DNA of 64,000 nucleotides from Candidatus Daviesbacteria bacterium (GTDB lineage: Bacteria > Patescibacteriota > Microgenomatia > Daviesbacterales > UBA10151): positions 228,887 through 292,886 of the forward strand of contig JACPKM010000004.1 in NCBI GenBank assembly GCA_016187025.1, read 5' to 3'. The translations under genes were made by a program, and so were the position numbers. The number at the start of each line of letters is the position of its first letter. Position 1 is the first letter of the stretch. The notes below the pieces were generated by a model. That model searched no databases, was not told the origin of the DNA, and worked only from the letters and a program-made list of their open reading frames with translations. Below, piece after piece: positions 13,632 to 35,139 of this stretch.

Positions 13632-13635
13632 AATT

Positions 13636-14187: not shown

Positions 14188-14190
14188 TGT

Positions 14191-17799: not shown

Positions 17800-19818
17800 C
17801 TAGTCAGGCATTACTTCTTTTGCCAAACTGGATAATTTTGCCTGAAGGGGTGGATATTTGTCAAGCGTAGGATCATCAGACAAAATATTTTTTGCAGCCT
17901 CCCTTGTTTTTTCAATTAATGTCAGATCAGAAAATGAGGCTATTTTTAAATCAAACCTGCCTGATTGTCTGGTGCCAAAAATTTCCCCTGCTCCCCTAAT
18001 TTTTAAATCTAGTTCTGCCAATTTTAATCCATCATCAATTTTTTCTAGGTTTTTTAGCCTGCTTATGGCTGATGAGTCAGAGCCTTCAGTAAAAAGCAAA
18101 CAATAAGATTGCTTCTCACCTCTGCCTACCCTGCCTCTTAGCTGATGCAGTTGTGCCAAACCAAACCTTTCAGCAGACTCTATTACCATGATTGTGGCAT
18201 TTGTTACATCAACCCCTACTTCGACAACGGAGGTGGCAACCAGGATATCTATTTTTTTATCTTTAAAACCGTTTAACACTTGCTCCTTCTCTTTTGATTT
18301 TAGTCTTCCATGTAAAATTCCAAGTTTTAGATCAGAAAAAACTTGCTTTTGTAGTTTTTCATACTCATAAGTTGCAGCTTTTGCCGAGGTTAAGGTTTCT
18401 GAAAGCTCAATTAAGGGGGTAATTATGTAAGCCTGATCACCGTCTTTAACTTTTTTTCTGATAAACTCATATGCATCAGTTCGTTTTTTTGATGGAACCA
18501 CATGAGTATTTATCTTTTTCCGGCCTTTTGGCAGCTCATCTATTACTGAGATATCCAAATCTCCATATAAAGTTAAGGCAACAGTCCTTGGAATGGGTGT
18601 AGCAGTAGTTGTTAAAAAATGGGGTAGTTTGCCCCTGCTTCTCAAAACCGTTCTCTGCCCTACCCCAAACCTTTGCTGCTCATCTATGATGACTAAACCT
18701 ACATCTTCGGTAATTAATTTATCTGAGAGTAAAGCATGGGTGCCGATTATCACATCTCCTTTTTCAGATTTTCTGCTTCCTGTATAAATTCCAACTTTGA
18801 TCCCCATTGGCTCAAGCAGTCTTGAAACAGTAGACAGATGCTGAAAAGCCAAAACCTCAGTAGGAGCCATAAAAAGAGTTTTGAGGCTGTTTAAATAAGT
18901 TACATACATAATCACAGCTGCAACAACAGTTTTACCAGAGCCTACCTCGCCTTGTATCAGCCGGTTCATCGGTTGGTTTCTCCCCAAATCATTTAGAACA
19001 TCTTTTATTACTCTTTTTTGAGCAGAGGTTAGCTCAAATGGCAGCCCTTTTATAAACTTTTCTACTTTTTTTATATTGGGGTTTAAAGGTTTGGTAGCAG
19101 GTTTATTTTTCCAGCTCAACCTCATCTTTTGGGTTGCCAGCTGAATATAGAAAAGCTCATCAAAGCCGAGTCTCTCTTTTGCTTTTTGCACATCTTCATA
19201 ATTTTTTGGAAAATGTATTTTGGAAATTGCATCATCTAAATCAAGCATGCTATCTTTAACCTCCTTTGGCAAAGGATCACTGATTTGCTCTTTCACCTTG
19301 GGAAGCATTTGAGAGATTTTTGCTCTTAACCATTTCGAAGTCAGCCCATAAGTTTCAGGATAAACAGGAACCAGTCTGCCAGTATGTAAGGTTGTAGTGG
19401 GTAGTGAGTAGGTTTCAGGTAACTTCTCCCAAACAGGGGCAACTATAGAGATTTTATTTTTGTATTTGCTCACTTTGCCTGAAACCTGTAACCTGTCACC
19501 TGTTTTTATCTGTTTTGTGAGCCAGCTTTGGTGAAACCAGGTTAACTCAATAGGACTGGTGCCATCATTAAAAATTGCCTGAGTAATGATTTTTCTTGAT
19601 CTGGTGAAGATGTTTCTAATTGACCAAATTTCGCCCTGTAAGGTCACTTTTTCACCTACTTTAGCATCTAAAGCACTAGATACATTGGAAAAATCATCAT
19701 ACCTAAAAGGGAAATGATAAATTAGATCTTCCAGAGTATAAAGGTTTAGCCTCTCTAGCTTTTTTGCAGTTGTGTACCCGATTCCTGATATTTGACTTAG
19801 CTGAAGCTTTAAATCCAT
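17800..19818 (-). CDS. recG: ATP-dependent DNA helicase RecG
   Basis: N-terminal wedge domain, Walker A GEVGSGKTVVA, DEQQRFGV (DExH), motif VI QLHQLRGRVGRG. 672 aa. Confidence 0.9.
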   Translation of the reverse strand: MDLKLQLSQISGIGYTTAKKLERLNLYTLEDLIYHFPFRYDDFSNVSSALDAKVGEKVTLQGEIWSIRNIFTRSRKIITQAIFNDGTSPIELTWFHQSWLTKQIKTGDRLQVSGKVSKYKNKISIVAPVWEKLPETYSLPTTTLHTGRLVPVYPETYGLTSKWLRAKISQMLPKVKEQISDPLPKEVKDSMLDLDDAISKIHFPKNYEDVQKAKERLGFDELFYIQLATQKMRLSWKNKPATKPLNPNIKKVEKFIKGLPFELTSAQKRVIKDVLNDLGRNQPMNRLIQGEVGSGKTVVAAVIMYVTYLNSLKTLFMAPTEVLAFQHLSTVSRLLEPMGIKVGIYTGSRKSEKGDVIIGTHALLSDKLITEDVGLVIIDEQQRFGVGQRTVLRSRGKLPHFLTTTATPIPRTVALTLYGDLDISVIDELPKGRKKINTHVVPSKKRTDAYEFIRKKVKDGDQAYIITPLIELSETLTSAKAATYEYEKLQKQVFSDLKLGILHGRLKSKEKEQVLNGFKDKKIDILVATSVVEVGVDVTNATIMVIESAERFGLAQLHQLRGRVGRGEKQSYCLLFTEGSDSSAISRLKNLEKIDDGLKLAELDLKIRGAGEIFGTRQSGRFDLKIASFSDLTLIEKTREAAKNILSDDPTLDKYPPLQAKLSSLAKEVMPD

Positions 19819-20353: not shown

Positions 20354-20379
20354 ATAAAAAACCCCCTATTGCTAGGGGG
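20354..20379 (-). terminator. Rho-independent terminator (minus strand)
   Basis: Perfect 7-bp stem CCCCCTA/TAGGGGG with 4-nt loop (20362-20379), preceded on + strand by ATAAAAAA, i.e. a U-tract after the stem on the minus strand. Downstream of the island operon/recG fragment. Confidence 0.5.
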
Positions 20380-20498: not shown

Positions 20499-20720
20499 TT
20501 AAGCGAAGTTTAAATTTCTAATTGACCAAATTTCGCCCTGTAAGGTCACTTTTTCACCTACTTTAGCACCTAAAGCACTAGATACATTGGAAAAATCATC
20601 ATACCTAAAAGGAAAATGATAAATCAAATCCTCAATAGTGTTTAAACTAAAGAAGCTTAGTTTATAGGCAAGGAATGATCCGATACCTGAGATTTGAATT
20701 AGAGTAGTTTTGAGATCCAT
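20499..20720 (-). pseudogene. Duplicated 5' fragment of recG (codons 1-~70), truncated
   Basis: Encodes MDLKTTLIQISGIG...EDLIYHFPFRYDDFSNVSSALGAKVGEKVTLQGEIWSIRN then stop. nt 20516-~20632 are near-identical (1-2 mismatches in ~115 nt) to recG nt 19614-~19730. More 5' part diverged. Confidence 0.6.
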
Positions 20721-20756: not shown

Positions 20757-22670
20757 TCAGGTGTTCTTGACTTTTTTGAAGTCAAAAGCTAGTTTCTTAC
20801 CTTGAGTAATCTGAAAACCAGATACTTCCCATCCAGGAGTTTTTTCTGTGAGCTTTTCTTTAATAATTCTATTTAAATTGGCAACATAACCTTCTATCTC
20901 TCCCCTTTTTAATTCAGCAATTCCTAAGTTTCCTACATGATGATTTTTAACACTTACTCCTCCTGAAGAATCATTTACAAGTTCAACATCAAATGTCGTA
21001 TCTACATTTACAGTTCCAAAAAAGGTTTTTTTCTCTGCATGGACTCCAGCAGAAATAGCCAGTCCTCCTTCAGGCGTAAACTGGTATTGAGGATTTAAGA
21101 TGCGACCATTTGCTGGAAGTGGTAACGTTTTAACATAATCTACAAGTCTGTCAACTCCTGCAACAATTCTTTGTCTTTCAGATCTACTTCCTCTTAATGT
21201 TTCGTTTAATTGATCTATCAGAGATACTCCTGGTTTAGGAGTAATTTCTGTGGTATGTACTTGTGGAACAGCAGGTTTTTCGCTCTTAGTTGGTGGAAAA
21301 GATGGACCCTTGTTTTCTGATATTACAGGTTTTGGTTGTAGATTATTGCTTGGCCTCAATATTACTGCGGGAGATAAGGTTAGTCCGTAGTATCTAATTA
21401 TATCCTGAACGGATTTATATACAGCTCGACCAATACTTGGATCAACAATTTGCACTTCTAAGTTTCCATCACTTGTTCTTCTTACTCTACGTCCAGGTAA
21501 TATAAAGCCTATTCGTCCTGTTTCAACACCTCTTGGACCAATAGTACAGTCATTAATAGGTAAAATTGCTACTGCTCCTTCTTCAACGTTTTGAAGTATA
21601 TCTGCAAGGGAGTTTGTTTCTCTAAATCTTATCTCAGGTGCTTGTAAAGATAATGCGGAAAGTAACTCCTTTATACTTCCACCTCTTTGATGCTCCGTAG
21701 CATATCTACTACCTCCAAGTGCTGCGATCAAAGCACCTTCAGCATGTCTAGAGTGATTAAACCCTTCTCCTAGAAGATGTCTTATAGCATTTTCAGCTGA
21801 AGCAAACACAGAGCTGTCCATTCCAAAAGGATCTGCCTGCGTTCTAATATTTCGTACAGGTTGAGGTTCACGTAAATGCATTAATCTTGGATATCTTTGC
21901 CTGACATCCTTCTCAGCTTCGCGAAACCTCATGAGAGTTTTATCATCAAAATTAAATCCTCTTTCTCTTGCTTCATTCCCCATCCTTGCAAGTTCATTTT
22001 CTAGAACCCTATCAAGTACCCTCCCTGAGTTTGGTGATCCAGAAGGAGTTTTAGTGTCTTTTTTTCCTTCTTTTTGTAATATTCTGGCTTGTTTTAGATA
22101 TACCCACTGTGAACCATAAATTACTGTGGCTGCCTCATCTATTGACTTTGCATATTCTGACTTTACTTTTTCTCTATCTTGAGGTTTATTAGCCTGCTCA
22201 ATTGTCTTTAAAAATCTTTGTGACATTTTTTCAAATTCTAAAGCTGTAGGATAATCTCTTGCTACTCTGTATATATCTCTTGGTACCAGCTGATTTTCTT
22301 GAGTAATATCTCCTCTTCTGGTGGCAAATGAGACCACTCTTCTTAAATGTCTATGGTCTGCATCTTCTCCTTTGAATCTATCAAATACAGCCACTGGATT
22401 TTCTCTATCAGATTGAGCATCAACAGGAGTGGGAATAACAGCTAACAGTTGTCTTAAATCTTTATCACCTATACTACCTGATACCAGTCCTTGATGGTAC
22501 TTATCTTTCTCATCAGTAGTTACATCTACTTTATCCAAAAGTACCAATCTTGGATTTCCTCTGACAATTGAGGCTACTATTTTATTTTGACGTCTAATAT
22601 TAGGGATAGGTTCTTGTTGGGCAACCATTAATGAAGCTGATATTTCAGATGAGTGTTCTGTACTTGCCAT
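20757..22670 (-). CDS. Lineage-specific protein: N-terminal shared domain A (~190 aa) + unique C-terminal region
   Basis: Residues ~25-215 (RRQNKIVASIVRGNPRLVLLD...YGSQWVYLKQARILQKEGKKDT) are paralogous to the N-terminus of 24237..25565 and the C-terminus of 25735..27741. Start set at MAS (22670). No signal peptide. Confidence 0.6.
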   Translation of the reverse strand: MASTEHSSEISASLMVAQQEPIPNIRRQNKIVASIVRGNPRLVLLDKVDVTTDEKDKYHQGLVSGSIGDKDLRQLLAVIPTPVDAQSDRENPVAVFDRFKGEDADHRHLRRVVSFATRRGDITQENQLVPRDIYRVARDYPTALEFEKMSQRFLKTIEQANKPQDREKVKSEYAKSIDEAATVIYGSQWVYLKQARILQKEGKKDTKTPSGSPNSGRVLDRVLENELARMGNEARERGFNFDDKTLMRFREAEKDVRQRYPRLMHLREPQPVRNIRTQADPFGMDSSVFASAENAIRHLLGEGFNHSRHAEGALIAALGGSRYATEHQRGGSIKELLSALSLQAPEIRFRETNSLADILQNVEEGAVAILPINDCTIGPRGVETGRIGFILPGRRVRRTSDGNLEVQIVDPSIGRAVYKSVQDIIRYYGLTLSPAVILRPSNNLQPKPVISENKGPSFPPTKSEKPAVPQVHTTEITPKPGVSLIDQLNETLRGSRSERQRIVAGVDRLVDYVKTLPLPANGRILNPQYQFTPEGGLAISAGVHAEKKTFFGTVNVDTTFDVELVNDSSGGVSVKNHHVGNLGIAELKRGEIEGYVANLNRIIKEKLTEKTPGWEVSGFQITQGKKLAFDFKKVKNT

Positions 22671-22779
22671 AATTATGTATTTTAACATAAATTATAGGAT
22701 AGATCTATCTAGTTAAGAACAAAACCTAACCAATATCAAACCTATAACACTTGACAAAAGGGCATTCATATTCAAGCTC

Positions 22780-24234
22780 CTACTGAATTGAAGAGGTGAC
22801 TGTAGTAGATGGTTCGCCCCTACCCAGTAATTTGTTTTTGACTAATTTTCTAATGGATTGCCAATATTTGTTTACTCTATCAGAAGTATAAGGATCTCCT
22901 CCATCTGGAATGAGCATATGTTGAGGTAGAAATCCGTTTTGAGCTTCATCTCGAATACTTTCTACCTGCATCCCTCTTACATGCTGGAAATTTACAATAT
23001 TATGTGCTCTGTTTACACCTCCGTCCCCCCAATAAGGGTCATGTATGATTATTTCTTTTTGAGGATCTGCTTCTGGTATTGTTGTATCGACATTACTTCT
23101 ATTAAGAAGTAGCTCTTTGGCAAGCCCTAAACCTGAAAGGCCAATAGTGAACAGATTTCCTAAATTTCCCATACCTACAGATAAAAGATTTCTATCAAAA
23201 TCCGGTTGCATCATTCCTTGATCAATTTCTGTTTGCATAAGGTCATAGAGTTCTTTTACAAAAAAGTAATTCTCCTTCACCTTTGATTGAAGCTTTTTTA
23301 ACAAAGCCTTAACCAGGACATTTTTACGATAACTTCTTTCGTCCTGTTTACCATCGGGGTTTTCATCCTCCGCCAGAATAAACCTCATTGCTGTTAAAGT
23401 ATCCATCTGCTGAGGACCGGCTTTAATAAGTTTTGGACCATATTCTTGACCACCTAGTTTAAAGGGTCCAGTTAGGTGATCTTTTTGCACCTGCACATCT
23501 AAAGGACCAACTTTATCCAAGAGATCTCTGATTACTGTATCTTTTATAACCATCTGGTAATCTATTGCCAAACCTGTGGCTTCTTCCACAACTTCTCGAA
23601 CTTGATCAAACTTTCCTTCACGATAAACATGACGCATATACATAGTTTGCACTCTTCCATCACTTTGTCTTTTTTCTAAATTCGGTGTTCTTATATCGCG
23701 GCTTAAAGATACTGACCTGATTTTTCCAGTTTTCAAATCATAAGAGATGACTGTAGGTGATCCACCATAGTTTGCATAACTTTCTCCATGCTCTTCCCAA
23801 TATACCCATAAAACTGCATTAACTGTGTTGTCGCTAAGTTCCTTATCAACCCTTTTACTATATTCCGGATCGTTTCTTTCTCTTTCTGCTCTTTTGCGGT
23901 ATGCCTGTTCAACAAAAGGTTTTAGGAGTTCATTAGTAAGTTTTACTTCTTTAACTGGTGGTTTAGTTGGTTCAGCAGTAGCGGTTGGAGGTAGTGGGGG
24001 TTGATCTCCTTTTGAAGGTATATTTGTAGGGGGAAAATGCTGATTTGATTCTACTCGAGGAGTTCGCAATAATCCTGGAACTAGTAAAGAGGCGAAACCC
24101 GCAGCGACAGCAGCACCACCACCCAATAAAAATCTTCTCCTGGAAGCATCCGGAGGGATAGCTCCAGATTCACCGAGTCTTATGAAATTAACTTTTCCTC
24201 CTAAAATTGGATCTATTTCAGATATTGGTTCCAT
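22780..24234 (-). CDS. LytR-CpsA-Psr (LCP) family protein with twin-arginine-type N-terminal signal/anchor
   Basis: SRRRFLLGGGAAVAAGFASLL (S-R-R-x-F-L motif + hydrophobic h-region). LCP-like blocks: VISYDLKTGKIRSVSLSRDI (cf. ...VSIPRDT), GLAIDYQMVIKDTVIRDLLDKVGPLDV (cf. IDYY..GF..IVDAVGGVDV), DTLTAMRFILAEDENPDGKQDER (cf. ALAFTR.R..D..GDF.R). Confidence 0.6.
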   Translation of the reverse strand: MEPISEIDPILGGKVNFIRLGESGAIPPDASRRRFLLGGGAAVAAGFASLLVPGLLRTPRVESNQHFPPTNIPSKGDQPPLPPTATAEPTKPPVKEVKLTNELLKPFVEQAYRKRAERERNDPEYSKRVDKELSDNTVNAVLWVYWEEHGESYANYGGSPTVISYDLKTGKIRSVSLSRDIRTPNLEKRQSDGRVQTMYMRHVYREGKFDQVREVVEEATGLAIDYQMVIKDTVIRDLLDKVGPLDVQVQKDHLTGPFKLGGQEYGPKLIKAGPQQMDTLTAMRFILAEDENPDGKQDERSYRKNVLVKALLKKLQSKVKENYFFVKELYDLMQTEIDQGMMQPDFDRNLLSVGMGNLGNLFTIGLSGLGLAKELLLNRSNVDTTIPEADPQKEIIIHDPYWGDGGVNRAHNIVNFQHVRGMQVESIRDEAQNGFLPQHMLIPDGGDPYTSDRVNKYWQSIRKLVKNKLLGRGEPSTTVTSSIQ

Positions 24235-24236
24235 AA

Positions 24237-25565
24237 TTATCTTAATTTAGGTAATCTTATACCTAAGAATTTAGATCTTGCCGGTTTTGGCGATAAATCT
24301 AAAAGAATCTTTGCGCAGTAGCTTAAAGCTAATAATTTACCATTTATCTCAGGTGTTGGAGCATAGCCCCTCCTACCTACATTTTGTGTATATTCATAGA
24401 TATCTTTATAAACTTCTCTGTCAGCAAAAGGCTTGGTCCTGGGATGCTGCATCCTGGAATTAATATGGTTAACAATTAAGTTTGCAAGACTCGCCTTTTG
24501 GCTTATTGTAAGAGTAGTATCTCTAAGAAAGGTTGAAGACAAATGTTGATAGACTCTACGAACCAGATCTGATGATAAATTAGTTAAATTTCTGGCAACA
24601 TTGGGCCAATCTGAGGCCAGGCCTTGAAAAATAAAGGTTAACTCTGGATTGGAAAGAGCTGTAAAATTTCTTCTATTTTCTTCTGTGTCGAAAAATAATG
24701 GCCTGGAAAAATAAAGTCCTAATTTTACCCGAAGCAATGAACGTTGTTCTGGTGTTAGACTCATAGTTTGAGTTGTGTGATCCACAAGCGATTCAATCAT
24801 GGAAGCTACAGTTGTAGCTTCTGCAGGTTGAAGGTCGGGAACCGGGTTTATATTTACTATGTCTGCTTCAGCGGGTTTTAAGACTATCTCGACATCTGGT
24901 GCTGCAACAACTTTTACCTTGGCTGCTTCAGTGTCTTTCCTTCCTTCTTTTTGTAATATTCTAGCTTGTTTGAGATAAGTCCATTGGCCGGCATAAATAG
25001 CTTGTCCGATAGTATCAAGTGTACCGATATACTCTAGCCTAACTTTTTCTCTATCTTCTGGCCTGTTTGCTTCTGAAACAGCTTTTAGTACTTGTGGAAT
25101 TACTTGTTCAAAATCTAAAGCAGTAGGTAGTTTTTCAGTTACGGCATAAAGATCTGATGCTTTGATTTGGTCTTGTGGAGTGATGCTTCCTCTGGTAATA
25201 AAGGCTACCGCTCTTCTCATGTGTCGTTGTTGGAAACCATCTCCCTCAAATCTTGCAAACAAATGTACTGGATTTCTACTATCTGGTGCAGCTTGAACAG
25301 CTGTCGGTAATATGGATACAGCTTTTTTAAAGTCTATTGCAGCTATAGTTCCTTCTCTAATACCTTTGGCAAAGTTTGCTCTTTCATAATCGCTTATTGG
25401 TACTACATCAGGTAATAGTAAACGGGGATTGCCGCGCAATACAGCTGCAATTATTTTATCTTGTCTTCTTGGATTAGGCTCTAGTCTTTCAGGGGGTAAT
25501 AAAGTTATTGAAGAGCTATCAGTTCCTAAAGGATTAGATGAATTACTTTCTGCTGCCTCTGCCAT
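24237..25565 (-). CDS. Lineage-specific protein: N-terminal shared domain A + unique C-terminal region
   Basis: RRQDKIIAAVLRGNPRLLLPD...YAGQWTYLKQARILQKEGRKDT domain A (aa ~30-215). C-terminal 220 aa unrelated to 20757 gene. Start 3 nt after LCP gene stop. Confidence 0.6.
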   Translation of the reverse strand: MAEAAESNSSNPLGTDSSSITLLPPERLEPNPRRQDKIIAAVLRGNPRLLLPDVVPISDYERANFAKGIREGTIAAIDFKKAVSILPTAVQAAPDSRNPVHLFARFEGDGFQQRHMRRAVAFITRGSITPQDQIKASDLYAVTEKLPTALDFEQVIPQVLKAVSEANRPEDREKVRLEYIGTLDTIGQAIYAGQWTYLKQARILQKEGRKDTEAAKVKVVAAPDVEIVLKPAEADIVNINPVPDLQPAEATTVASMIESLVDHTTQTMSLTPEQRSLLRVKLGLYFSRPLFFDTEENRRNFTALSNPELTFIFQGLASDWPNVARNLTNLSSDLVRRVYQHLSSTFLRDTTLTISQKASLANLIVNHINSRMQHPRTKPFADREVYKDIYEYTQNVGRRGYAPTPEINGKLLALSYCAKILLDLSPKPARSKFLGIRLPKLR

Positions 25566-25734
25566 ACTTTAATATTATTATCTGGAGAGTGAAAAATACA
25601 ACAATTATCTTTTCAAAGCTCGTATATTAAGTATAATTGCTCTTGTTACTAGATCAGGTTTCTGATTGGTACCCTCAGTAGCTTTTTGAGTGTGTCTTCC
25701 TTGCTTTTTCATTCTCCACTCAGGATAGTGTTGA

Positions 25735-27741
25735 TTATTTTCCTTGTCGCATTTGTTGCTCTAATATTCTGGCTTGTTTGAGATAGACCCATTGTGAGCC
25801 ATAAATTGTCATACCAACCTTATCTAAAACACTAACATACTCTAATCTAATCCTCTCTCTATCTTCTCGTTTATTTGCTTGCTCAACTGCAAGTAATAGC
25901 GTTGGTATTGTTTGCTCAAAATTAAGGGCAGTTGGAAACCGTTTTGCAAAAAAAGCAAGATCTGCAGCGGTTATTTGATCATGAGAGGTAAGATTACCTT
26001 TTGTCACATAAGAAACAATTCTACGCATCCTCCGAGCATCATCCGTAGCTTCCTTAAATTTAGCGAACAGACTTACTGGGCTTTCTGGATCTTTTTCATA
26101 TGCTAAAGAAGTTCGAATAACTTTAATCATATTTAAATACTGTGTTGATCCAATAACACCATCACGAACTCCCTTTTGGAAGAGTGCTCGCTCTGCTTCT
26201 GAAACGACAACTTTATCAACCAACACAAGACGATGATCTCCCCTTACAATCGCTGCAATTATTTTATCTTGTCTTCTTGGATCCGGAGAAGTATTTAGCT
26301 CAACTTGTGATTGTTCAGATGGCTTTTGTCTTACTTGGGATTCCCCTGTTTTGGTAGAGGATGGTAATTGGGGGCCTTGATTCCATGAGTCCATATAAAC
26401 GGTTGCCATATTAGTTTCGCCCCTTTTTATTGACTCTTGCATTCTTCTAGATCTTTCTATAAATCTGCTCATGTCTGTAATTACTATCCGGCTTCCGTGG
26501 ATATCTTTAGGGTCTCCTATGATTGTATATTGAATACCAACCATTTCTAGGTGAGTTCTATAAAACCAAGAATTCTTGCCCAAATGTTCTCCTTCCTCGT
26601 AGCCATTAATCACTTTATTTAATATTTGAGTTATTTCCGCTTTAAGTTGCTCTACCTTTGCTGGATTAGAATAATCAAACATGGGGAACTGATTTACATC
26701 TAAAGCCCTCATCTTAGCTTCTGCAGATGTATCACCAAATGGAATCTGTCTTCCTTGGCCTTCTAAATAGCTGCTTAATCCCCGCCTATTATTTGTGATT
26801 AATACTGTTCCATCACCGGCATATCCGAGTGTTCCTTTTGCTTTTCTTAGTGATCGTATTGTTTTCCCAGTCCATTCTTGTTCTCCTGTTTTTAGCGCAG
26901 AAGGGTAACCTCCAATCGCAGAGTAAATCGATGACTTCATTACAGAGTTTGCCCCAAATAAGTTTACATTTCCATTAATAAAACCACGTTTATCAAGCAG
27001 ATTGACAAATTCTGTTTTAGCATGAACAGCTGGAAATCTGGTAAAGGATTGAGGATCAAATAAAAGGTTTCCAACAGCACCTTCTTTATCAGGATGTTCT
27101 CTAAAATATTTTAAATATTCTTCTAGGTATTGTGGATTTAAGCCCTCACAATCAGCATCGTTACTCAGTAGTAATATATCCTTATAAACTCCCGCATTTT
27201 CTGTTCTTATTAGTGCAAGATCAGTTTGAATTTTTCTAATATTCCCAATCTTTACCTGCTCGTCTGGTAAGGTTGCTGCCACTAAGCGAATATTTAACCT
27301 AGGGAAAGTTTTTCCAGCACGTTTCACTTCTACAACAGTGGCTTTGTATGCGTCTTTTTTACTCTGCATTTGGGATTCAGGAGCGTTCACAAAAACGATT
27401 AACTCAAATTTTTTTGAGTCTAGTGTTTGTTCAGAGTAAAGTTTTAATGTCTTAAATATATTCCTTGCTTCTTGTATACCAGCAACCGGTATACAAACTA
27501 CGGCTTCTGTTTCAGGACGCATGCTTTTACCAATTTGACTATCTAGTCTTTTCAGTTGTGCTAAGTATTTTGGATCCTGTCTTTGTAGGTAACTTCTTCT
27601 TTCTGTGACCGGGTCTAATTTAGCATTTGGATTTTGTAATAATGTCGGAGAGGCAGCTACTCGATCAACTAAACTTACTTGTCTTAAGGTAAATGGGTTA
27701 TCAGGTGTGGATATGATATCTGCTGTTGGATCTTGGTCCAT
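25735..27741 (-). CDS. GT-A-like glycosyltransferase-domain protein with C-terminal domain A
   Basis: aa ~78-430 paralogous to the giant protein region aa ~1310-1710 (AVVCIPVAGIQE..., DxD-like SNDADC, GANSVMKSSIYSAIGGYP, EEGEHLGKNSWFYRTHLEMVGIQY). aa ~487-668 = domain A (PRRQDKIIAAIVRGDHRLVL...SQWVYLKQARILEQQ). Confidence 0.6.
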   Translation of the reverse strand: MDQDPTADIISTPDNPFTLRQVSLVDRVAASPTLLQNPNAKLDPVTERRSYLQRQDPKYLAQLKRLDSQIGKSMRPETEAVVCIPVAGIQEARNIFKTLKLYSEQTLDSKKFELIVFVNAPESQMQSKKDAYKATVVEVKRAGKTFPRLNIRLVAATLPDEQVKIGNIRKIQTDLALIRTENAGVYKDILLLSNDADCEGLNPQYLEEYLKYFREHPDKEGAVGNLLFDPQSFTRFPAVHAKTEFVNLLDKRGFINGNVNLFGANSVMKSSIYSAIGGYPSALKTGEQEWTGKTIRSLRKAKGTLGYAGDGTVLITNNRRGLSSYLEGQGRQIPFGDTSAEAKMRALDVNQFPMFDYSNPAKVEQLKAEITQILNKVINGYEEGEHLGKNSWFYRTHLEMVGIQYTIIGDPKDIHGSRIVITDMSRFIERSRRMQESIKRGETNMATVYMDSWNQGPQLPSSTKTGESQVRQKPSEQSQVELNTSPDPRRQDKIIAAIVRGDHRLVLVDKVVVSEAERALFQKGVRDGVIGSTQYLNMIKVIRTSLAYEKDPESPVSLFAKFKEATDDARRMRRIVSYVTKGNLTSHDQITAADLAFFAKRFPTALNFEQTIPTLLLAVEQANKREDRERIRLEYVSVLDKVGMTIYGSQWVYLKQARILEQQMRQGK

Positions 27742-27779: not shown

Positions 27780-30700
27780 CTATTTGAGTTGATTATAGGC
27801 GTTAGATAAATCTATTAACATTTGATCAGTAGTTTGGTATCTATTTCTTGGTTCTGGATCAAGCCCCTTAATAAATATTCTTTTAATACTATCAGGTATG
27901 TTTGCTGGAATTTCAAATCTTCCATTCGTATGGGCTTCATATTCTCTTTCTAGTAATCTTTGCGTTGATTCACCTTTAAATCTTGGAACATTAAATGGGA
28001 AATTACCAGTCATTAACTTATATAGCAATACTGTTAATTCATAGGTATCGCAGCTTAAAGTAACATTAGGGTTTTCTCTAAAAAGTTCTGGAGGTCTAAT
28101 ATGTCTATTTCCTCCTACAAACCCTCTCCTAAATTTCCCCCCGGTACCTTTAATGCTACCTGCATCAAAGTCGATTATTTTTATACCTTGCTCGCCCAGT
28201 AGGATATTAGAAAGTGCAATATCAAGATGTACAATACCTGCATTATGAAGCTCTCTTATAGTTTCTGCAATTTTTATAGTAGTAGCAATTGCTTGCTGGG
28301 GTGGTAAAGACCTATTTGTCGCAAAGTAATGCTCTAAATCAGTATTTTGAAGTGGATAAATTTTAATGATTTCGTCACCGTTATCAATTTCATCTATAAA
28401 AGTACCAAATGTAGGGCTTGTTGTTTGTGCCTTGATTATTGTTTCTAGATCTTTTACTCCATCTGGATAACGATTTGCTTTTGCAATGTATTCTCTTTCA
28501 CTCTTTTTTACCCTTTTAAACGACAAAATCTGTCCAGTTGTTTTATTGTATCCTGCAACAATTTGTCCCATTTGACCTGATCCTAAAGGTTTATCTAAAC
28601 AAACCACATAATCACCAAATTCTTGAATTTGCGTGCTCTCCTTTAGCTTTTCTAGATCATACTTTGGAGCAGTTGTTGTAGGTATAACTACTGGGTTTTC
28701 CTTATTAAACTGATCCAAAGCGTTATCCGCTTCTGCTTTTTCTGCTAACTCACGTTCTTTTCTTGTGATATCCAAGTTTTCTAGTTCTTTTTGGAATTCA
28801 TCCTCAAGTCTGGTAAGCTCAGCCAAAGTTTCTGGAGTTCCTTTACCTGCTTTTATATCTCTGAGTAATACTCCAATCTTTTGATAGTGTTTTAATCCTC
28901 TAACTAAAACATCCATATTTATTATAACCACATTACCATTTACTACTTTGTACTGGATTCCCGACCATCGTAGTGCACGTTGGTAATATTCAGAGTCCTT
29001 GCCAAGTCTTTCGCCATGTTCGTAAATATCAAGTGTTTTATTAATAACTGTCTCCAATCCTTCTTTGAATTTAGCAAGTTGAGCGGGATCATCGTAATTA
29101 ATATTTTCTCCTTCCCCAAGTTGCATTCTTCTGATTTCATCATCGAAGGCACTGAATTCTTTTTGCCATTGATCTAAAGGAACAATTCCATCCTTGATTG
29201 CGGCTATGGCTCGTCTGGCTGATGTGTATAGCCTGGATACTCTTGTTCCCGCGAAGGTAACTCTTTTATGGTCCTGTCGACCTTCAATAATTCCCCAGCC
29301 AATCGCAATATCTTCCCCGCCTTCAGAACCTGGTAAATAACCACCAATAGCAGCATAAATACTTCCACGAAACGCAAAGTTTGCTCCACTTGAAGGCATT
29401 CGCCCGCTGCGGTGGCGACCAATTACGGCTAAATTCTGAAACAAACGCGTACCAATATGTAATAGTGGATATTTAATATAAGCTTCCGGATCCCAATCGA
29501 GTTGACCCAGCATTCCATCTACTTGCGGGTTTTGTTCAAACTTCTGAATGAAGTTACTTAAATATGTTGGAGCAATACCTTTGTTATCTGCATCGTTACT
29601 TATTAAGATTATATCTTCTGCTTTAGGACCTCTCTGATATTGCCTAAAAAGTGCAATATCATTTAAATACTTTCTGATAGTGCCAATGTTTGCCTGCTTT
29701 ATAGGGAGCGCTTTAACTACCACTCTAATAGGCACATCAGGATGATCTTTTCTAAATCGTTCTATTTCTGATAAGGTGTTATCGGGTTTGACTGGTTCTC
29801 CTTGTTTATCAGTTTGTGGGTAATTTACAAAAAGCAAGATCTCATATTGGTCCTTAGAAGCATCCTGAGGTAGATAATTTGCCAAAGAGTTATAAATATT
29901 TCCTCCTTCTTGATGTCCTGCTACCGGAATACAAACTATAGCCTTTAAGTTCACCGAAGGTTCTTCTTTAATCTGTCCTGTTAACTGTTTTATTTCTTGA
30001 TAATATGCTGGATTCTGCTTTTCAAAATACATCTGTGCTTCTTGGTATGAATTTAGTTTTGCATTGGGGTTTTGCTTTAATGTTTTAGATCTATTTTTTG
30101 CTAAGATTTTCAAAATTTCCTCTCTTGGCCTGCCTCCATAAAGAGAGCCAGGAGGTATAAGTCTTTCTTCAAATGGTAGAGGGTGATATGGGGCAAAAGG
30201 GGTTGCCCAGAGCTTATCTGCAGGTATTTCTGCTGGTAAAGGTGGGATATATTTAATTGCTTCAGGCGGGGTAAGCTTAAACCCTTCGTGAGGCGGTCTG
30301 GGCTCAGGAATAGGAATTGCCTCCCCCGGAATAGTAGTTGGAATCTTTTGAACTTCCCCCGGACCAACTGTTGTTGAAAGTATAGTTCTTACCATGGATC
30401 CATCCGGCCTTTTTTCAACATGCGCAACCTCAATAAATTCTACATTCTGAAAGTTTCCCCATTTGTTCCTAATGGGATTTCCATTTTGATCCAGATTAAA
30501 TAAAGCTTTTGTTAAAGGAGAGTTAGCATCTAAATTAAGTTTTCCCTGCATAAGCTCCGGATGGGTTTGGGCATTAATTACCACTACTTGTCTTGCCTCA
30601 TCAGCTGCATGATCAGGAGTAATTAAAATCTCAAAATTTCGATAACCATTTTGAGAAATATCTTTTGCAAGCCTGCCGTATTGTGAATCAATGGAAAAAT

Positions 30701-33700
30701 CCCAGTTTACCCCTCTTTTTCCATCAGGCAGAAGCTGTGATCTCATCTGGGAAAAGTCCAGCTCAACTTGTCCATCTTTTACCCTGTGATGAAATTGCAG
30801 TTCTTTGCCGTCTATTCCAATTATATTGCCAGTATCCTTACTGCCTGCTGGTCTGCCGTCAGCAAATCTTCTTATGGTGTCGTTATCATGCCAAAGATCA
30901 CGTCTGGCCCGGTCTACCTCCCCAATTTCTTTATGTTCTCTTATAAAACCAAAAAAATCTTTATCAACAATCTTATCGGGACTTTTCTCATATCTTATTC
31001 CAGGAGGTGTTTCAAATTGCTTAGACTCAATTGCCCATCCTTCTGTTTTGAGCCTGGATTGGACACTGTCCCAGTTAACATTTGCATTAGCCGGATCCTG
31101 CGGGTCAAAAGACAAAGCTCCTTCCTGGTCAAAATGGCCCACAATCCAAGCATTATCAGGGCTTTTTATATCAGGGTTACCCAGAAAAATAGAAACAGAG
31201 CCACGGTCTTTGTTCAAATCCACAATTGAGCTTCCGTGGATAAAAGTTAAGTCCTGCTCCGGTGAGCTGGCAAAATTCTTAATCTTTTGATGAATATTAA
31301 AATCAGGGTTATCATAGATTTCTCTTGTCCATCCTGTATCAGTTACTAAATTTTTAATTTTTGGATCAAGGCTGGCTTCAGCTCCTGAAATAACCAGTGA
31401 GCCTTCTGAGGTAACCCTCACCGGAGGACCGGCAATTGTCTGCCCGGTAGCCCTGTCTATAAAATGTGCATTGTGCCCATTATCCGCTCCATAGTTTGTT
31501 GCTAAAGTCAGATCATTGTTAAGGTCGTAATTTTTAGGATTATCAAAAGTTTGTTTGAAAGTATCCCTTGCTAATCCAGGTGCTCTTGTAGGTGTCCACC
31601 TGGTTTCAAAAAAGCCCCTTCCATCCATCATGTTTTGAACACCCCTGACAGCCAGTCCTCCTGCAAATCCTAAGGTAGATGCAAAAATTGTTGCTCCAGC
31701 TGCCTGGCGGACTCTGTAGTTTCTTGCTGCTCCATTTTTTGCTCTTTTGTCATCACTGATTTCCTGGTCAACAACATCAAATTGCTCTGACAGTAAAGTA
31801 TTAAGTTGTGCCGCATCTGTAATCTGGGACCTTAACTTTTGCTCAAGCCTTGCTGCAGCATCAACCAACTGAGCAACTTCCTGATCTGCTAAAACATAAT
31901 TTTTACCGTAAGTTATATACTCACTTTTTTCTCTTCTTCCTCTAATAAGTCTTACTCTAATTTCCTGCATTCTTCTTGCTACTTCTTGCTGGTTGGTCGT
32001 GTTGGATAAATCCAATGTGAGTAATTGATCAACTCCCGCTTGGAGATGATTTTGACCTCCGCCATCAAGCAGTTGCTTTGCAGAAAAGGTTTGGTAGCGG
32101 GATCTTTCCATATCCCGCCTTCTTTCTGTACCACGCAGTCTTCCCCATAGCCCTCCATTTGCCTGCATATCAGGTACTGTTCCACCTAAAGCAACCTCTG
32201 CTGCATGCATTTTTTGCTGATGTGCGACCTCTCCTAGTCTTCTTAACCCTACAACTCCTCCTCCTGCAACCGCACCAAGAATTAATCCTCCTAATGGTCC
32301 TGCTAAAGCTGTGCCTCCAACTACAGCGCCTATCCTCACCCCGCCATTTGCAGCTTTTAGCAGCCCATCTGCCCCCAGCGAAACCGCTGCTCCCACAAAC
32401 AGAGGGTTTAGAATTGTTCCTGCCAGCAGACTGTCGCCGCCCTTTACTAAACTTTCAGCCCGTCTTCTTCTTGCCCAGGCAACAGTTTTATCTGTGGCTG
32501 TGAGGTTTTCGGTATTACCGGCAAATCTTGCATTTGCAAGCCTTATGGTGACATAAGCATCAATTTGGTCAGCTCCTTCCTGGTGTTTTGCCAGATTATC
32601 TTTGAGCTTTAGCCCCATTTCCAAAAGATCTGTTGCAAAATAATCAGCAATCTGCCCAAAACTTTCAGCTTGATTACCAAATAGTTGCCTGATTAAAGGA
32701 TTATCCATATTGTTTTGGACAAACTGAGTTAACTGCCTTCTAACATCTTCTTTTCTTTGTCTAATTTCAGCTTCATTTTGAGGAACATTACCAGTAACAA
32801 TAGGGGTAAGGATGTCTTTAATAATTTTGCCTCTTAAGTCATTTTGTTCAGGAGTGTTTTTATCTAGTGTAATAATTTGCTCTCCATTTAGAGTTTGATT
32901 TGCTTTTAATCTGCCCAACACTGCTTGCTGTTGCGCATCGGTACTGTGTCTTAGATCATTTAGTCTTTGTGCAGCTTCTTGAGAGAGGCCTCTCACTGGA
33001 GAGCCATCAAAAAATGATTTTCTCATCTTTTCGTACATTAGATTAACCGCTCCACCTCTGCCGAGTCTTACTCCTATCATTGAGGGAATTCTCCAAATAT
33101 CCCTCCAGCCTTTAAACTTCAAAAACTTTTCTACCTCTTTTTGTGCGTCCAGGTGCAAAACTTTTTCAATAACGTCTGTATTTCTGGTAATATTTATTTC
33201 AACCTCTCTTTGTTCTGGCTGAGAAGATGGAGATGGTTCTACTCCTGGTCTTCCTGGGGTGTCAACAGGTGCAGGAGCTGCAGCAGGTGCGCCGCCTGGA
33301 GCAGAAGCTGCAGGAGCTGGGGAGGGGGCAGCAGGCTGTTTGACAGGTTGCAGAGTATCTGGATCAACCAGCTCCCTTCTTGCCTCCAATGCAGGCTTGG
33401 CAACCTCAAGCCAGTCTTTATCTGGTTCTCCTCTTTTTCTGGAATCCTGATATGCAAAATACGCCTCTTGTTGTAAACGGGCTTTAAATTGTGGACTTGA
33501 TTCATCGTGAGCATCAGGATGCACCTCTTTATAAGCCTTACTGCTTGCTTTTAAAACTTTAATTGCATTTTGAATTTTCTTCCTCTCATTTTTATTAGTT
33601 GTAAAAAGAGCTTCCTCGTTTAACAGTTCAAGAAGCCCGTCAATCGGAACACCCTCACTTTGGCTGAAAGCTTGCCCTGTTTGGGGATCTGTAAAGTTGT

Positions 33701-34010
33701 TTGTAAAACTAAACCCGCCCTTTGCGATATCAGCTTTATTTTTAGGATCAGGTTGATTGCTGCTATCCGGGTGGGGTGCAAAAGCGCCTTGGATAGCTTC
33801 ATAAGCATGTCTTGCCTTGTTTATCTTACCTGTTTGATTGGGGTCTGCAAGCAAACTTGGGTTATTTAAAAGCCCCTCAATTTTTGTTAGTCCAAAACGT
33901 AGAGCATTTTTGACTTGTTGCCGGCTAGGAATTTCCGGGGTGTTAATTTTACCAGGATGACTTTCTATATCTTGAACTGAGACAGGGTTTTCTGTTGGTT
34001 GGCCGTTCAT
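27780..34010 (-). CDS. Giant (2076 aa) multidomain protein: Pro/Ala-rich linker, glycine-zipper hydrophobic segments, GT-A-like domain, C-terminal Ser/Thr protein kinase-like domain
   Basis: Pro/Ala-rich aa ~221-267 (nt ~33210-33350, locally GC-rich). Gly-rich hydrophobic aa ~528-589 and ~769-790 (GAAVSLGADGLL...GAVAGGGVVGL). GT-A-like aa ~1355-1580 (AIVCIPVAGHQEGGNI; ILISNDADN DxD). Pro-rich linker aa ~1222-1290. Kinase aa ~1795-2076: LGSGQMGQIV G-loop, LSFKRVKK, HNAGIVHLDIALSNILL catalytic loop, IIDFDAG (DFG-like). Confidence 0.7.
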   Translation of the reverse strand: MNGQPTENPVSVQDIESHPGKINTPEIPSRQQVKNALRFGLTKIEGLLNNPSLLADPNQTGKINKARHAYEAIQGAFAPHPDSSNQPDPKNKADIAKGGFSFTNNFTDPQTGQAFSQSEGVPIDGLLELLNEEALFTTNKNERKKIQNAIKVLKASSKAYKEVHPDAHDESSPQFKARLQQEAYFAYQDSRKRGEPDKDWLEVAKPALEARRELVDPDTLQPVKQPAAPSPAPAASAPGGAPAAAPAPVDTPGRPGVEPSPSSQPEQREVEINITRNTDVIEKVLHLDAQKEVEKFLKFKGWRDIWRIPSMIGVRLGRGGAVNLMYEKMRKSFFDGSPVRGLSQEAAQRLNDLRHSTDAQQQAVLGRLKANQTLNGEQIITLDKNTPEQNDLRGKIIKDILTPIVTGNVPQNEAEIRQRKEDVRRQLTQFVQNNMDNPLIRQLFGNQAESFGQIADYFATDLLEMGLKLKDNLAKHQEGADQIDAYVTIRLANARFAGNTENLTATDKTVAWARRRRAESLVKGGDSLLAGTILNPLFVGAAVSLGADGLLKAANGGVRIGAVVGGTALAGPLGGLILGAVAGGGVVGLRRLGEVAHQQKMHAAEVALGGTVPDMQANGGLWGRLRGTERRRDMERSRYQTFSAKQLLDGGGQNHLQAGVDQLLTLDLSNTTNQQEVARRMQEIRVRLIRGRREKSEYITYGKNYVLADQEVAQLVDAAARLEQKLRSQITDAAQLNTLLSEQFDVVDQEISDDKRAKNGAARNYRVRQAAGATIFASTLGFAGGLAVRGVQNMMDGRGFFETRWTPTRAPGLARDTFKQTFDNPKNYDLNNDLTLATNYGADNGHNAHFIDRATGQTIAGPPVRVTSEGSLVISGAEASLDPKIKNLVTDTGWTREIYDNPDFNIHQKIKNFASSPEQDLTFIHGSSIVDLNKDRGSVSIFLGNPDIKSPDNAWIVGHFDQEGALSFDPQDPANANVNWDSVQSRLKTEGWAIESKQFETPPGIRYEKSPDKIVDKDFFGFIREHKEIGEVDRARRDLWHDNDTIRRFADGRPAGSKDTGNIIGIDGKELQFHHRVKDGQVELDFSQMRSQLLPDGKRGVNWDFSIDSQYGRLAKDISQNGYRNFEILITPDHAADEARQVVVINAQTHPELMQGKLNLDANSPLTKALFNLDQNGNPIRNKWGNFQNVEFIEVAHVEKRPDGSMVRTILSTTVGPGEVQKIPTTIPGEAIPIPEPRPPHEGFKLTPPEAIKYIPPLPAEIPADKLWATPFAPYHPLPFEERLIPPGSLYGGRPREEILKILAKNRSKTLKQNPNAKLNSYQEAQMYFEKQNPAYYQEIKQLTGQIKEEPSVNLKAIVCIPVAGHQEGGNIYNSLANYLPQDASKDQYEILLFVNYPQTDKQGEPVKPDNTLSEIERFRKDHPDVPIRVVVKALPIKQANIGTIRKYLNDIALFRQYQRGPKAEDIILISNDADNKGIAPTYLSNFIQKFEQNPQVDGMLGQLDWDPEAYIKYPLLHIGTRLFQNLAVIGRHRSGRMPSSGANFAFRGSIYAAIGGYLPGSEGGEDIAIGWGIIEGRQDHKRVTFAGTRVSRLYTSARRAIAAIKDGIVPLDQWQKEFSAFDDEIRRMQLGEGENINYDDPAQLAKFKEGLETVINKTLDIYEHGERLGKDSEYYQRALRWSGIQYKVVNGNVVIINMDVLVRGLKHYQKIGVLLRDIKAGKGTPETLAELTRLEDEFQKELENLDITRKERELAEKAEADNALDQFNKENPVVIPTTTAPKYDLEKLKESTQIQEFGDYVVCLDKPLGSGQMGQIVAGYNKTTGQILSFKRVKKSEREYIAKANRYPDGVKDLETIIKAQTTSPTFGTFIDEIDNGDEIIKIYPLQNTDLEHYFATNRSLPPQQAIATTIKIAETIRELHNAGIVHLDIALSNILLGEQGIKIIDFDAGSIKGTGGKFRRGFVGGNRHIRPPELFRENPNVTLSCDTYELTVLLYKLMTGNFPFNVPRFKGESTQRLLEREYEAHTNGRFEIPANIPDSIKRIFIKGLDPEPRNRYQTTDQMLIDLSNAYNQLK

Positions 34011-34012
34011 TA

Positions 34013-34351
34013 CTAGTTTGTAACTGGTGTAGAAATAACTGTATTCCCAAGATATAAATCCCTAAAATCCAACATAGCTTTGGCAAACACATCCTCTGAG
34101 TTGGGAATTTTTTCTTTTAAGAATTGTTGAATTTCTTGTTGTGGCCTTTTTTGGTCCACCATTTGGCTGAATTGGTCTAAATGTTCAGGGGGCAAATTAT
34201 CCAAAATAGTTGTAGACAGGAAATTATCAAGTCTGACATATAAATCATCGATTAGCTGCTTGTGCATATTCCCGTCTGCAGCAGTGATACCTGCCTCTGT
34301 TAATAGATTGTCTAAATAGCCCCTAACTTCTGGTGGAATTTGGTTATCCAA
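34013..34351 (-). CDS. Small acidic protein translationally coupled to the giant gene (candidate chaperone/adaptor)
   Basis: 112 aa, acidic, helical-looking. Its TAG stop is separated by 2 nt from the giant gene ATG (TAG-ta-ATG). 250-bp AT-rich putative promoter region upstream. Confidence 0.5.
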   Translation of the reverse strand: MDNQIPPEVRGYLDNLLTEAGITAADGNMHKQLIDDLYVRLDNFLSTTILDNLPPEHLDQFSQMVDQKRPQQEIQQFLKEKIPNSEDVFAKAMLDFRDLYLGNTVISTPVTN

Positions 34352-34602
34352 AAAACTTCACCTCCTTATTCATACTTAATTCCAGTATTTCACTAATAAT
34401 AATATGTTGTCAACAGGAAACCCGCTATTTATACTTAAAACACATGTTATTTGTTTTTGTGTTTTTACTTGAGTTGTTTTTGTTGTATTTCTTATCTAAA
34501 AATTTGATAAAAGAGTTATCCGTAATTCTTCTAAAAATAAGCAAGTATAACCATTCATTTACTGTTAATATTTTGGCTGTAGTTTTTTTGCCTGGGACAA
34601 TA

Positions 34603-35139
34603 ATGCATGAGCTTGCTCATCTTTTAATAGCCGGAGTTTTGATGGTCCCTGTTGGCGAGTTAGAAGTGATCCCTGAGATAACAGATAAAGGAGTCAAACT
34701 GGGAAGTGTCCAAGTTGGCCAAACAGACCCTTTTAGAAGAATTTTAATAGGAGTTGCTCCGGTTTTAGTAGGGATTGCCACCATTACCTTTATAATTTTT
34801 TTCAACCTTGATACTTTAAAAAATTTATCTTCCTGGTTGATTATCTCTTCGGTTGTTTATGGACTCTTTGAGGTTTCTAACACTATGTTTTCCAGTAAAA
34901 AAGATATAGAGGGGGCTTTAGTGTTTCTTGGTGCTTTGGTAGTTGTTGGAGTAATACTGTTTGGGGCATTTTTATTCACAGGACAATCAATTCCTAACAG
35001 TTGGCTAAAACTTGTTGATTTTTCCTCTGTTTATATCTTTTTTAAAATGGTTAGTTTATATATGCTCCTGCCTTTGATAATTGATTTGTGCTTTTTTGCA
35101 GTTTTTAAACTGGTTAACCTAGCCTTAAATCGAGGTTAA
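34603..35139 (+). CDS. Membrane protein with N-terminal HExxH (putative zincin-like, DUF3267-like)
   Basis: MHELAHLLIAG at N-terminus followed by 4-5 TM helices. Start chosen at ATG 34603 because upstream part of the listed ORF runs through AT-rich intergenic-looking DNA. Confidence 0.4.
   Translation: MHELAHLLIAGVLMVPVGELEVIPEITDKGVKLGSVQVGQTDPFRRILIGVAPVLVGIATITFIIFFNLDTLKNLSSWLIISSVVYGLFEVSNTMFSSKKDIEGALVFLGALVVVGVILFGAFLFTGQSIPNSWLKLVDFSSVYIFFKMVSLYMLLPLIIDLCFFAVFKLVNLALNRG

Follow-up and report, generated by a model that had tools for sequence, protein, structure and literature searches.

In the genome of a Candidatus Daviesbacteria bacterium, a gene for a protein of 2076 amino acid residues, referred to here as the giant, is preceded at a distance of two nucleotides (nt) by a small open reading frame (ORF). 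What does a protein of 112 residues do beside such a neighbor? The stretch that we analyzed, called the window below, consists of 64,000 nt (GenBank assembly GCA_016187025.1, contig JACPKM010000004.1, positions 228,887 to 292,886 of the forward strand), and positions are given as those of the window. An original prediction, made from its letters alone, proposed that the ORF is translationally coupled to the giant gene and specifies a dedicated chaperone, a secretion adaptor or an immunity partner. Here we report that the small protein belongs to the family DUF5663 and that, across the Microgenomates of the Candidate Phyla Radiation (CPR, or Patescibacteria), DUF5663 and the giant make up a cassette of two genes, which are gained and lost together and diverge as a unit. 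We consider it very probable that DUF5663 is a dedicated partner of the giant.

The small ORF encodes a DUF5663 protein

The ORF occupies the minus strand, starting with TTG at 34351 and ending with the stop codon TAG at 34015–34013 (Table 1). A range of 34008–34351 had first been assigned to it, which covers the ORF but wrongly takes in the ATG of the giant gene; that the ORF ends 2 nt ahead of this ATG was borne out. We took the TTG as the true start because it is the first start codon past the preceding in-frame stop, because AAGGAGGTGA lies upstream of it and because it aligns with the conserved N-terminal "MDN" of the homologs, one of which (in locus L005) likewise starts with TTG.

The protein is 100% identical to the Ca. 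Daviesbacteria hypothetical protein HYW42_04555. It matches Pfam DUF5663 (PF18908) with 45.0 bits against a gathering cut-off of 23.7 (E = 1.7e-11), the match spanning residues 16–98 and profile positions 1–82 of 84, and its homologs carry precomputed PF18908 annotations. An exhaustive search of 1.84 billion cluster representatives retrieved 637 relatives at E ≤ 1e-3. Given the Pfam match and these 637 representatives, the small ORF is a real gene and not a chance ORF. We found no mention of DUF5663 or PF18908 in the literature that we searched, and no function has been assigned to the family.

Typical DUF5663 proteins have about 100–150 residues. The best 150 of the 637 representatives range from 84 to 350 residues, and among these 150 DUF5663 appears as a stand-alone protein that is never fused to the giant. 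Each locus contains one copy, and no giant has a DUF5663 match inside it. The 64-kb window yielded no DUF5663 paralog. In locus L014, the first cassette is followed after 5 kb, at the limit of the fetched sequence, by a second DUF5663 gene (11553–11681) of this contig; from this case, some genomes may carry two cassettes.

As had been predicted, the protein is acidic, with an isoelectric point (pI) of 4.39 (18 Asp + Glu versus 9 Lys + Arg), and the family is uniformly so (median pI 4.47). No signal peptide or transmembrane segment was found, nor is a hydrophobic segment apparent in the translation. An AlphaFold2 (AF2) model built from a 15-sequence alignment predicts a five-helix bundle (residues 7–19, 27–51, 55–66, 71–81 and 85–105) followed by a disordered C-terminal tail, with a predicted local distance difference test score (pLDDT) of 83 and a predicted template modeling score (pTM) of 0.67. 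In the close subfamily, the most conserved stretch is the end of helix 5, F96-R97-D98-L-Y100-L101-G102-N103. A sequence-profile search of the PDB gave nothing significant, and we found no solved structural relative of DUF5663. NCBIfam, PADLOC and PHROGs had no match for the small protein, and the Pfam scan revealed no family besides DUF5663, including no helix-turn-helix (HTH) or other DNA-binding family. Readings as a defense system or a phage component were dropped, as the small protein has no PADLOC or PHROG match and the giant matches generic kinase models only.

The small gene and the giant gene form a conserved cassette

We collected loci in two ways. The sample anchored on DUF5663 comprised 7 genome loci and 12 encoding contigs, whose proteins are 27–61% identical to that of the window; wherever the sequence runs on past the small gene, a giant homolog lies 1–16 nt downstream. 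The reverse test used 80 metagenome loci fetched with the neighboring membrane protein (Table 1) as the anchor. A homolog of the giant scaffold occurs in 15 of these 80 loci, and DUF5663 is adjacent in all 15. The giant-free loci are also free of DUF5663, save for weak matches in L038 (E = 3e-7) and L066 (E = 3e-4) and for L049, L068 and L075, where the contig ends beside the small gene. In L042, L043 and L064, RecG borders directly on the membrane protein at the very site expected for the cassette. The original prediction had been staked on there being no relative with the giant but without the small ORF, and none was seen: among all the loci fetched, there is no giant-scaffold gene without an adjacent DUF5663. 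Two apparent exceptions are artefacts, as L006 holds the second half of a split gene and the small gene of L013 is present, having been missed by ORF picking.

The 31 non-identical loci show three arrangements. In arrangement A (26 loci, including the window), the small gene is divergent from the membrane-protein gene and stands 1–16 nt upstream of the giant gene, the reading-frame relations differing among the 26 junctions; one further gene table agrees. Arrangement B, in which the small gene is divergent from the giant gene and leads into the membrane-protein gene, is found in L073, L089 and probably L068, whose divergent ORF of at least 466 residues is cut by the contig end and was not recognized as a giant homolog. 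In arrangement C (L046 and L062), the giant gene comes first and DUF5663 follows in the same direction. An adjacency that outlasts both inversion and reordering argues for a link at the protein level and not for an effect of translation in cis alone. The short junctions are compatible with co-translation. That the small ORF is joined to the giant by readthrough or a frameshift is out, since spacer length and frame relation vary among loci and the family representatives include no fused protein.

The giant's pre-membrane part and the small protein diverge together

We compared pairwise distance matrices (mirror-tree) for the 18 loci in which the genes for the small protein, the giant and the membrane neighbor are all complete, using the Mantel test. 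The small protein correlated strongly with residues 1–900 of the giant (r = 0.84, P ≤ 1e-4), and still did so when two type-B loci were dropped (r = 0.79). The membrane neighbor correlated neither with the small protein (r = 0.04, P = 0.31) nor significantly with the giant (r = 0.12, P = 0.10). Along the giant, the correlation with the small protein was 0.66 for residues 1–220, 0.82 for 270–525, 0.72 for 526–600 and 0.76 for 600–770, and 0.21 for 770–900, past the third hydrophobic segment. These correlations indicate that the giant's pre-membrane part has a history in common with the small protein, one that the membrane gene a few dozen bases away does not have. The conserved adjacency together with the co-divergence at r = 0.84 strongly supports what the original prediction had proposed, a small acidic helical protein dedicated to the giant. 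DUF5663 is small, acidic and cytoplasmic, and its pairing with one large client, conserved in 31 non-identical loci, is new information about the family.

The giants combine a constant scaffold with variable C-terminal modules

The layout of the window's giant is given in Table 1. Its Hanks-type kinase, the sole module recognized by Pfam, matches PF00069 with 90.6 bits against a threshold of 31.7 (E = 1.4e-25) and the PDB kinases StkP and PknB at E of about 1e-13. The module resembling a type A glycosyltransferase (GT-A) is conserved, but its best PDB match, a GT2 enzyme at E of about 0.5, is not significant. Complete giant homologs have 1444–2442 residues, the others running off the contig. 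They share the scaffold to about residue 1290 and differ at the C-terminus, which carries a kinase in L005, a kinase with PP2C in L009, GT9 in L008 and L013, PP2C with ATP-grasp in the P0003 neighbor and no recognizable module in others; among 18 full-length giants, a kinase was found in 3, GT9 in 2 and PP2C in 1. By these domain matches, the giants are a polymorphic family in which the enzymes at the C-terminus are exchanged behind a conserved N-terminal scaffold.

In all 16 giants compared, the stretch just past the third hydrophobic segment is acidic (median pI 4.9; residues 791–1290 in the window, about 30141–31640) and leads into a Pro-rich linker, and the regions ahead of that segment are neutral to basic. 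Under the positive-inside rule, the N-terminus would then lie inside and the long C-terminal part (GT-like, kinase, PP2C) outside the membrane. An extracytoplasmic position of kinase and GT modules would be surprising, as such enzymes depend on nucleotides, and would be compatible with their display on the surface or their delivery to a host.

Table 1 Features of the locus, with window positions and, for parts of the giant, residue numbers
Feature	Position	Strand	Residues of the giant	Basis and remarks
DUF5663 gene, 112 aa, TTG start, TAG stop	34013..34351	minus		ORF list and translation
Shine–Dalgarno sequence AAGGAGGTGA	34358..34367	minus		6–9 nt ahead of the TTG; read from sequence; strong
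Stop-start junction TAG-ta-ATG, 2-nt spacer	34008..34015	minus		Read as ...aca aac TAG ta ATG aac...
Promoter-like site TTGACA-18 nt-TG-AATACT	34384..34413	minus		10/12 matches, extended -10 TG; consensus match only
Divergent promoter-like site TTGTCA..TATACT	34407..34435	plus		Overlaps the minus-strand site; faces the membrane-protein gene
Giant gene, 2076 aa	27780..34010	minus		ATG at 34010; translation
Conserved N-terminal region			~30-215	Followed by a Pro/Ala-rich linker
Helical region			270-527	
Gly/Ala-rich hydrophobic segments	32256-32429	minus	528-554, 560-585	Hydropathy; flanking Arg/Lys clusters
Charged region			586-769	
Third hydrophobic segment	31638-31703	minus	770-791	Hydropathy
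Acidic middle region			after 791	
Pro-rich linker			~1220-1290	22 Pro per 100 aa
GT-A-like module, NDAD motif	28851-30113	minus	~1300-1720	Motifs only
Hanks-type Ser/Thr kinase	27828-28592	minus	1807-2061	Pkinase PF00069
668-aa paralog of the giant's GT-like module	25735-27741	minus		
442-aa protein	24237-25565	minus		Uncharacterized
484-aa LytR-CpsA-Psr protein	22780-24234	minus		
643-aa protein	20757-22688	minus		C-terminus resembles C-termini of giants elsewhere
Terminator-like hairpin	20362..20379	minus		7 bp, 5 G-C pairs, T-run; pattern match only
231-aa polytopic membrane protein (MEMB)	34444..35139	plus		Divergent from the small gene

Expression signals around the small gene

The junction between the two genes is too short to hold a promoter or a ribosome-binding site for the giant gene, which has no Shine–Dalgarno sequence (SD) ahead of it. 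GGTGA-type SDs precede the small gene not only in the window but also in L003, L004, L005 and L008. The intergenic region upstream of the small gene has a GC content of 0.29, versus 0.385 for the window, and contains the best promoter-like site of the neighborhood on the minus strand, although promoter-like matches in this region are in no excess over shuffled sequence. It had been described as the only long AT-rich promoter-like region of its block; the site is there, but the region measures just 92 nt (34352–34443), and the same block has other AT-rich gaps of 938, 169 and 91 nt. Rfam and tRNA scans found nothing near the locus.

Six of nine close orthologs of the small gene end in (T/L)N-stop, written ACn/CTn-AAY-TAR at the nucleotide level, directly before the giant ATG (positions 34013–34024 in the window; also L002, L004, L006, L008 and L009), the C-terminal tails being otherwise variable and disordered. 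This shared 3′ end could be a nucleotide-level signal for re-initiation or plain shared ancestry.

Discussion

In the mechanism that we propose, DUF5663 is a cytoplasmic, acidic, all-alpha protein whose gene leads an operon, shares its transcript with the gene for the membrane-anchored giant and is coupled to that gene in translation. As the product of the leading cistron, translated from a strong ribosome-binding site, it would already be at hand when the N-terminus of the giant emerges. It would then bind the conserved N-terminal scaffold ahead of the third hydrophobic segment, which is presumably cytoplasmic, and not the variable C-terminal enzymes, and could serve as a holding chaperone, as an adaptor for assembly or targeting, or as a stoichiometric, permanent subunit. 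We lean toward this fuller claim of a dedicated partner that binds the scaffold, with appreciably less assurance than toward the partnership itself; physical binding, the binding region and the chaperone or adaptor activity are what we infer rather than what we observed.

Several observations weigh against this interpretation. In 5 of the 31 non-identical loci, the small gene is divergent from the giant gene or follows it, and coupling of their translation is not essential; thus, the coupling claimed for this locus has a suitable junction here, but the family can do without it. Close spacing is common in the window, where 17 of 28 same-strand gene pairs lie no more than 16 nt apart, and so is a missing SD, as an SD-like motif precedes only 13 of 44 genes. 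We therefore rejected the 2-nt gap and the absent SD as special evidence for coupling, both being common in this genome; what sets the locus apart is that the pairing is conserved, and not how closely the genes are spaced. Co-divergence, for its part, can arise without binding if a cassette is inherited or transferred as a whole, and the low correlation for the membrane neighbor may in part reflect its narrower spread of distances (standard deviation 0.065 versus 0.112). Charge complementarity between the acidic partner and basic pre-membrane regions, true in the window, holds for only 7–9 of 18 giants and was discarded as an argument.

In another reading, the small ORF would matter mainly in cis, as a leader ORF whose translation drives initiation at the SD-less giant gene, or its product would be an autoregulatory DNA- or RNA-binding factor. 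The strong SD on the small ORF and none on the giant gene, the junction of 1–16 nt in most loci and the first place in the operon behind the best promoter-like site would all suit such a role. We regard it as very unlikely, because amino acid sequence, a confident predicted fold and acidity are kept over the 637 representatives, which implies selection on the protein and not on mere translation, and because divergent and downstream arrangements exist. Moreover, SD-less genes are the norm in the window (31 of 44), a pI of 4.4 is poor for binding nucleic acids, and the Pfam scan revealed no DNA-binding family. The notion of an immunity protein, which would inhibit the giant's kinase or glycosyltransferase in the producer cell, draws on a small acidic protein beside potentially toxic enzymatic domains and on an architecture like that of polymorphic toxins, with variable C-termini. 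Immunity genes typically lie downstream of their own toxin, whereas 26 of 31 loci have the small gene upstream. Giants with kinase, PP2C, GT9, ATP-grasp or no recognized module all have a DUF5663 protein as their companion, DUF5663 co-diverges with the N-terminal scaffold and not with C-terminal modules, and it has no PADLOC match and no match to a known immunity family. That DUF5663 stays constant while the C-terminal modules are swapped argues against immunity and for a partner of the conserved N-terminal part; the immunity partner offered by the original prediction is thus extremely unlikely.

Two further alternatives give DUF5663 a different partner or destination. It could work with the membrane protein, a possible site-2-protease-like enzyme with an HExxH motif, either as an adaptor that presents the giant for cleavage within the membrane or as a regulator of that cleavage; the Gly/Ala-rich membrane segments of the giant could be substrates. 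DUF5663 nearly always lies between the giant and the membrane protein; in L073, L089, L068 and L066 the small gene is co-directional with the membrane gene and 0–46 nt upstream of it. The membrane protein has the motifs LPGTxxHELxH and NTMFSSKKDxEG, of which HELxH and N-x7-D-x-G are invariant in 8 aligned sequences, and Peptidase_M50 matched 3 of 6 such proteins below threshold (E of about 0.24–0.65). Against this, about three quarters of the 80 loci have the membrane protein but neither DUF5663 nor the giant, the divergence of this protein shows no correlation with that of DUF5663, and it has no Pfam match above threshold and no PDB match. We judge this distinctly unlikely; the membrane protein is a syntenic neighbor of the cassette and does not co-evolve with it. 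Alternatively, DUF5663 could be a VirE1- or IcmS/IcmW-like chaperone or adaptor of a type IV secretion system (T4SS) that presents the giant, as a polymorphic effector, for export to a host cell. The giants' constant N-terminus and variable C-terminal enzymes would be in keeping with this, and the cassette heads a string of T4SS genes in L010/L011 and L059, where DUF5663 and the giant are followed by one gene and then by PrgI/VirB3-like, TraC-like and VirB4-like genes, with arrays of VirB2-like pilins opposite. T4SS genes also flank the cassette in L005, L007, L046, L056 and L062, and VirD4-like genes lie within 10 kb in L012 and the P0003 contig. Patescibacteria need their T4SS for epibiotic growth, and no substrate of it has been identified (PMC12857230, PMC12102498); we found no mention of the cassette in the literature on this system that we consulted. 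On the other hand, T4SS genes are missing from many other cassette loci and present in 7 of 29 cassette-free loci of at least 8 kb, following the neighborhood of the membrane-protein gene and not the cassette. T4SS queries had no match in the 64-kb window, DUF5663 has no sequence or fold similarity to VirE1, IcmS/W or another known adaptor, and the giant's membrane-anchor-like segments are atypical of a soluble T4SS substrate. A T4SS adaptor is thus an unlikely, if attractive, explanation.

CPR bacteria are ultra-small, the cultivated ones grow as epibionts on other bacteria, and their host-interaction machinery is largely unknown. With a dedicated partnership between DUF5663 and the giant, a family of at least 637 sequence clusters that had been without a function gains its first functional context, as the obligate partner of multi-enzyme membrane proteins of 1400–2400 residues. 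The giants themselves are an unannotated CPR family, whose polymorphic architecture is now described. Should binding be confirmed, co-expression with DUF5663 should make the N-terminal parts of the giants tractable for biochemistry, and the cassette would be a marker for a candidate host-manipulation system; should it not be, what remains is a clean, conserved two-gene cassette of modest wider significance. The most far-reaching possibility is that DUF5663 and the giant make up a lineage-specific effector cassette of the Microgenomates. The giant would then be a membrane-anchored, wall-spanning polymorphic effector, its cytoplasmic N-terminus held by DUF5663, and swappable kinase, phosphatase, glycosyltransferase and ATP-grasp modules would be displayed on, or delivered into, a host bacterium, perhaps through the patescibacterial T4SS that adjoins the cassette in several genomes. 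We doubt that all these parts hold together. If they did, CPR host-interaction factors would have in DUF5663 their first known adaptor family for secretion or assembly, one whose fold is unlike those of known chaperones.

The closest counterparts of the cassette are functional ones. VirE1 of Agrobacterium is a small acidic secretion chaperone co-expressed with VirE2, a T4SS substrate (PMC4513855). As in that pair, a small acidic helical protein is encoded directly upstream of a much larger client in one operon, and T4SS genes lie nearby in some cassette loci. VirE1 is a much smaller and simpler helical protein than DUF5663, which has about 110 residues in a predicted five-helix bundle and no similarity to VirE1 in sequence or fold, and the client here is a membrane-anchored multi-enzyme protein of about 2000 residues, unlike VirE2, a soluble protein that binds single-stranded DNA. 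Lap1 and Lap2 (DUF3130/DUF3958) bind LXG polymorphic toxins at their conserved N-terminus and target them for type VIIb secretion (PMC9600955, PMC10801868). There too, in monoderm bacteria like these, a small alpha-helical protein is encoded just upstream of a large one with a conserved N-terminus and variable C-terminal enzymes. The present cassette differs in having one partner gene instead of two, no Pfam match to DUF3130, DUF3958, WXG100 or LXG, and no type VII secretion genes that we could see. Moreover, Lap factors are WXG100-like helical hairpins, versus five predicted helices in DUF5663, and typical LXG toxins are 3–5 times smaller than the giants, which, unlike them, carry membrane segments.

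Eag proteins (DUF1795) are chaperones of the type VI secretion system (T6SS), encoded beside a large effector, that shield Gly-rich membrane segments in its N-terminal region. DUF5663 is likewise a small protein encoded beside a large one with hydrophobic Gly-rich segments in the N-terminal region, the binding of such segments being conjectural here. Eag proteins are beta-rich dimers, in contrast to the all-alpha fold predicted for DUF5663, which has no DUF1795 match, and a T6SS is not known in these monoderm bacteria. In size, acidity, single large client and gene adjacency, DUF5663 also resembles the class I chaperones of type III secretion systems (T3SS) such as CesT and SycE, which have about 110–150 residues, a pI of 4–5 and an adjacent gene for one large client. 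These chaperones have a mixed alpha/beta fold and act with a T3SS; DUF5663 is predicted to be all-alpha, and no T3SS family was found among the window genes scanned. Family hidden Markov models gave no match to VirE1, DUF3130/DUF3958/WXG100, DUF1795 or CesT-like proteins, and fold searches recovered no chaperone. Thus, the resemblance to VirE1, Lap1/Lap2 and Eag is functional only, and the protein belongs to DUF5663 alone.

Genomic surroundings of the cassette

The small gene probably heads a transcription unit of about 14 kb, which would run through the giant and the genes for the 668-aa, 442-aa, LytR-CpsA-Psr and 643-aa proteins, since no minus-strand promoter-like site was found in the gaps downstream of the giant (20757..27741) and a hairpin stands at 20379–20362. 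The C-terminal 200 or so residues of the 643-aa protein match the extreme C-terminus of the giants of other genomes (L003, 14801–15388) as well as a separate 466-aa gene in L010 (7433–8833); modules appear to shuffle between the giant and the genes downstream of it. A direct repeat of 110 nt, 98.2% identical, links 20515–20624 with 19613–19722 and duplicates part of the recG 5′ end. The duplicate forms a 73-aa truncated RecG-like ORF (20499–20720, minus strand) between the hairpin and the intact recG (17800–19818). Because recG directly follows the giant in relatives, the truncated copy looks like the scar of a rearrangement that placed the four extra genes (20757–27741).

A single-sequence AF2 model of the membrane protein reached a pLDDT of only 51 and was not used. 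In many loci, the membrane gene lies amid T4SS genes (L046, L048, L053, L059, L062, L067, L085 and L099, in the region around position 10000), often directly between the PrgI/VirB3, TraC-like and VirB4 string and three or four VirB2-like pilin genes (PF18895). Judging from this placement, its product could be an unrecognized T4SS-associated protein, perhaps a pilin-processing intramembrane metalloprotease of Patescibacteria.

TATAAT-like sequences occur within about 20 nt of the start codon of several window genes, for example upstream of 50484–51224, 53095–53505 and 60476–62209; taken with the window-wide scarcity of SDs, this suggests that initiation in this genome is often leaderless or independent of an SD. 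Attachment machinery typical of CPR bacteria is encoded about 20 kb away from the cassette, a type IV pilus cluster on the plus strand (1205–14886) with a prepilin peptidase (5142–6050), a PilX_N-like protein (8882–9781) and PilM (12594–13631), preceded by a 1091-aa CARDB/PA14 surface protein (1205–4480). The rest of the window, with this type IV pilus, an ATP synthase, aminoacyl-tRNA synthetases and PBP1a, is consistent with a CPR genome.

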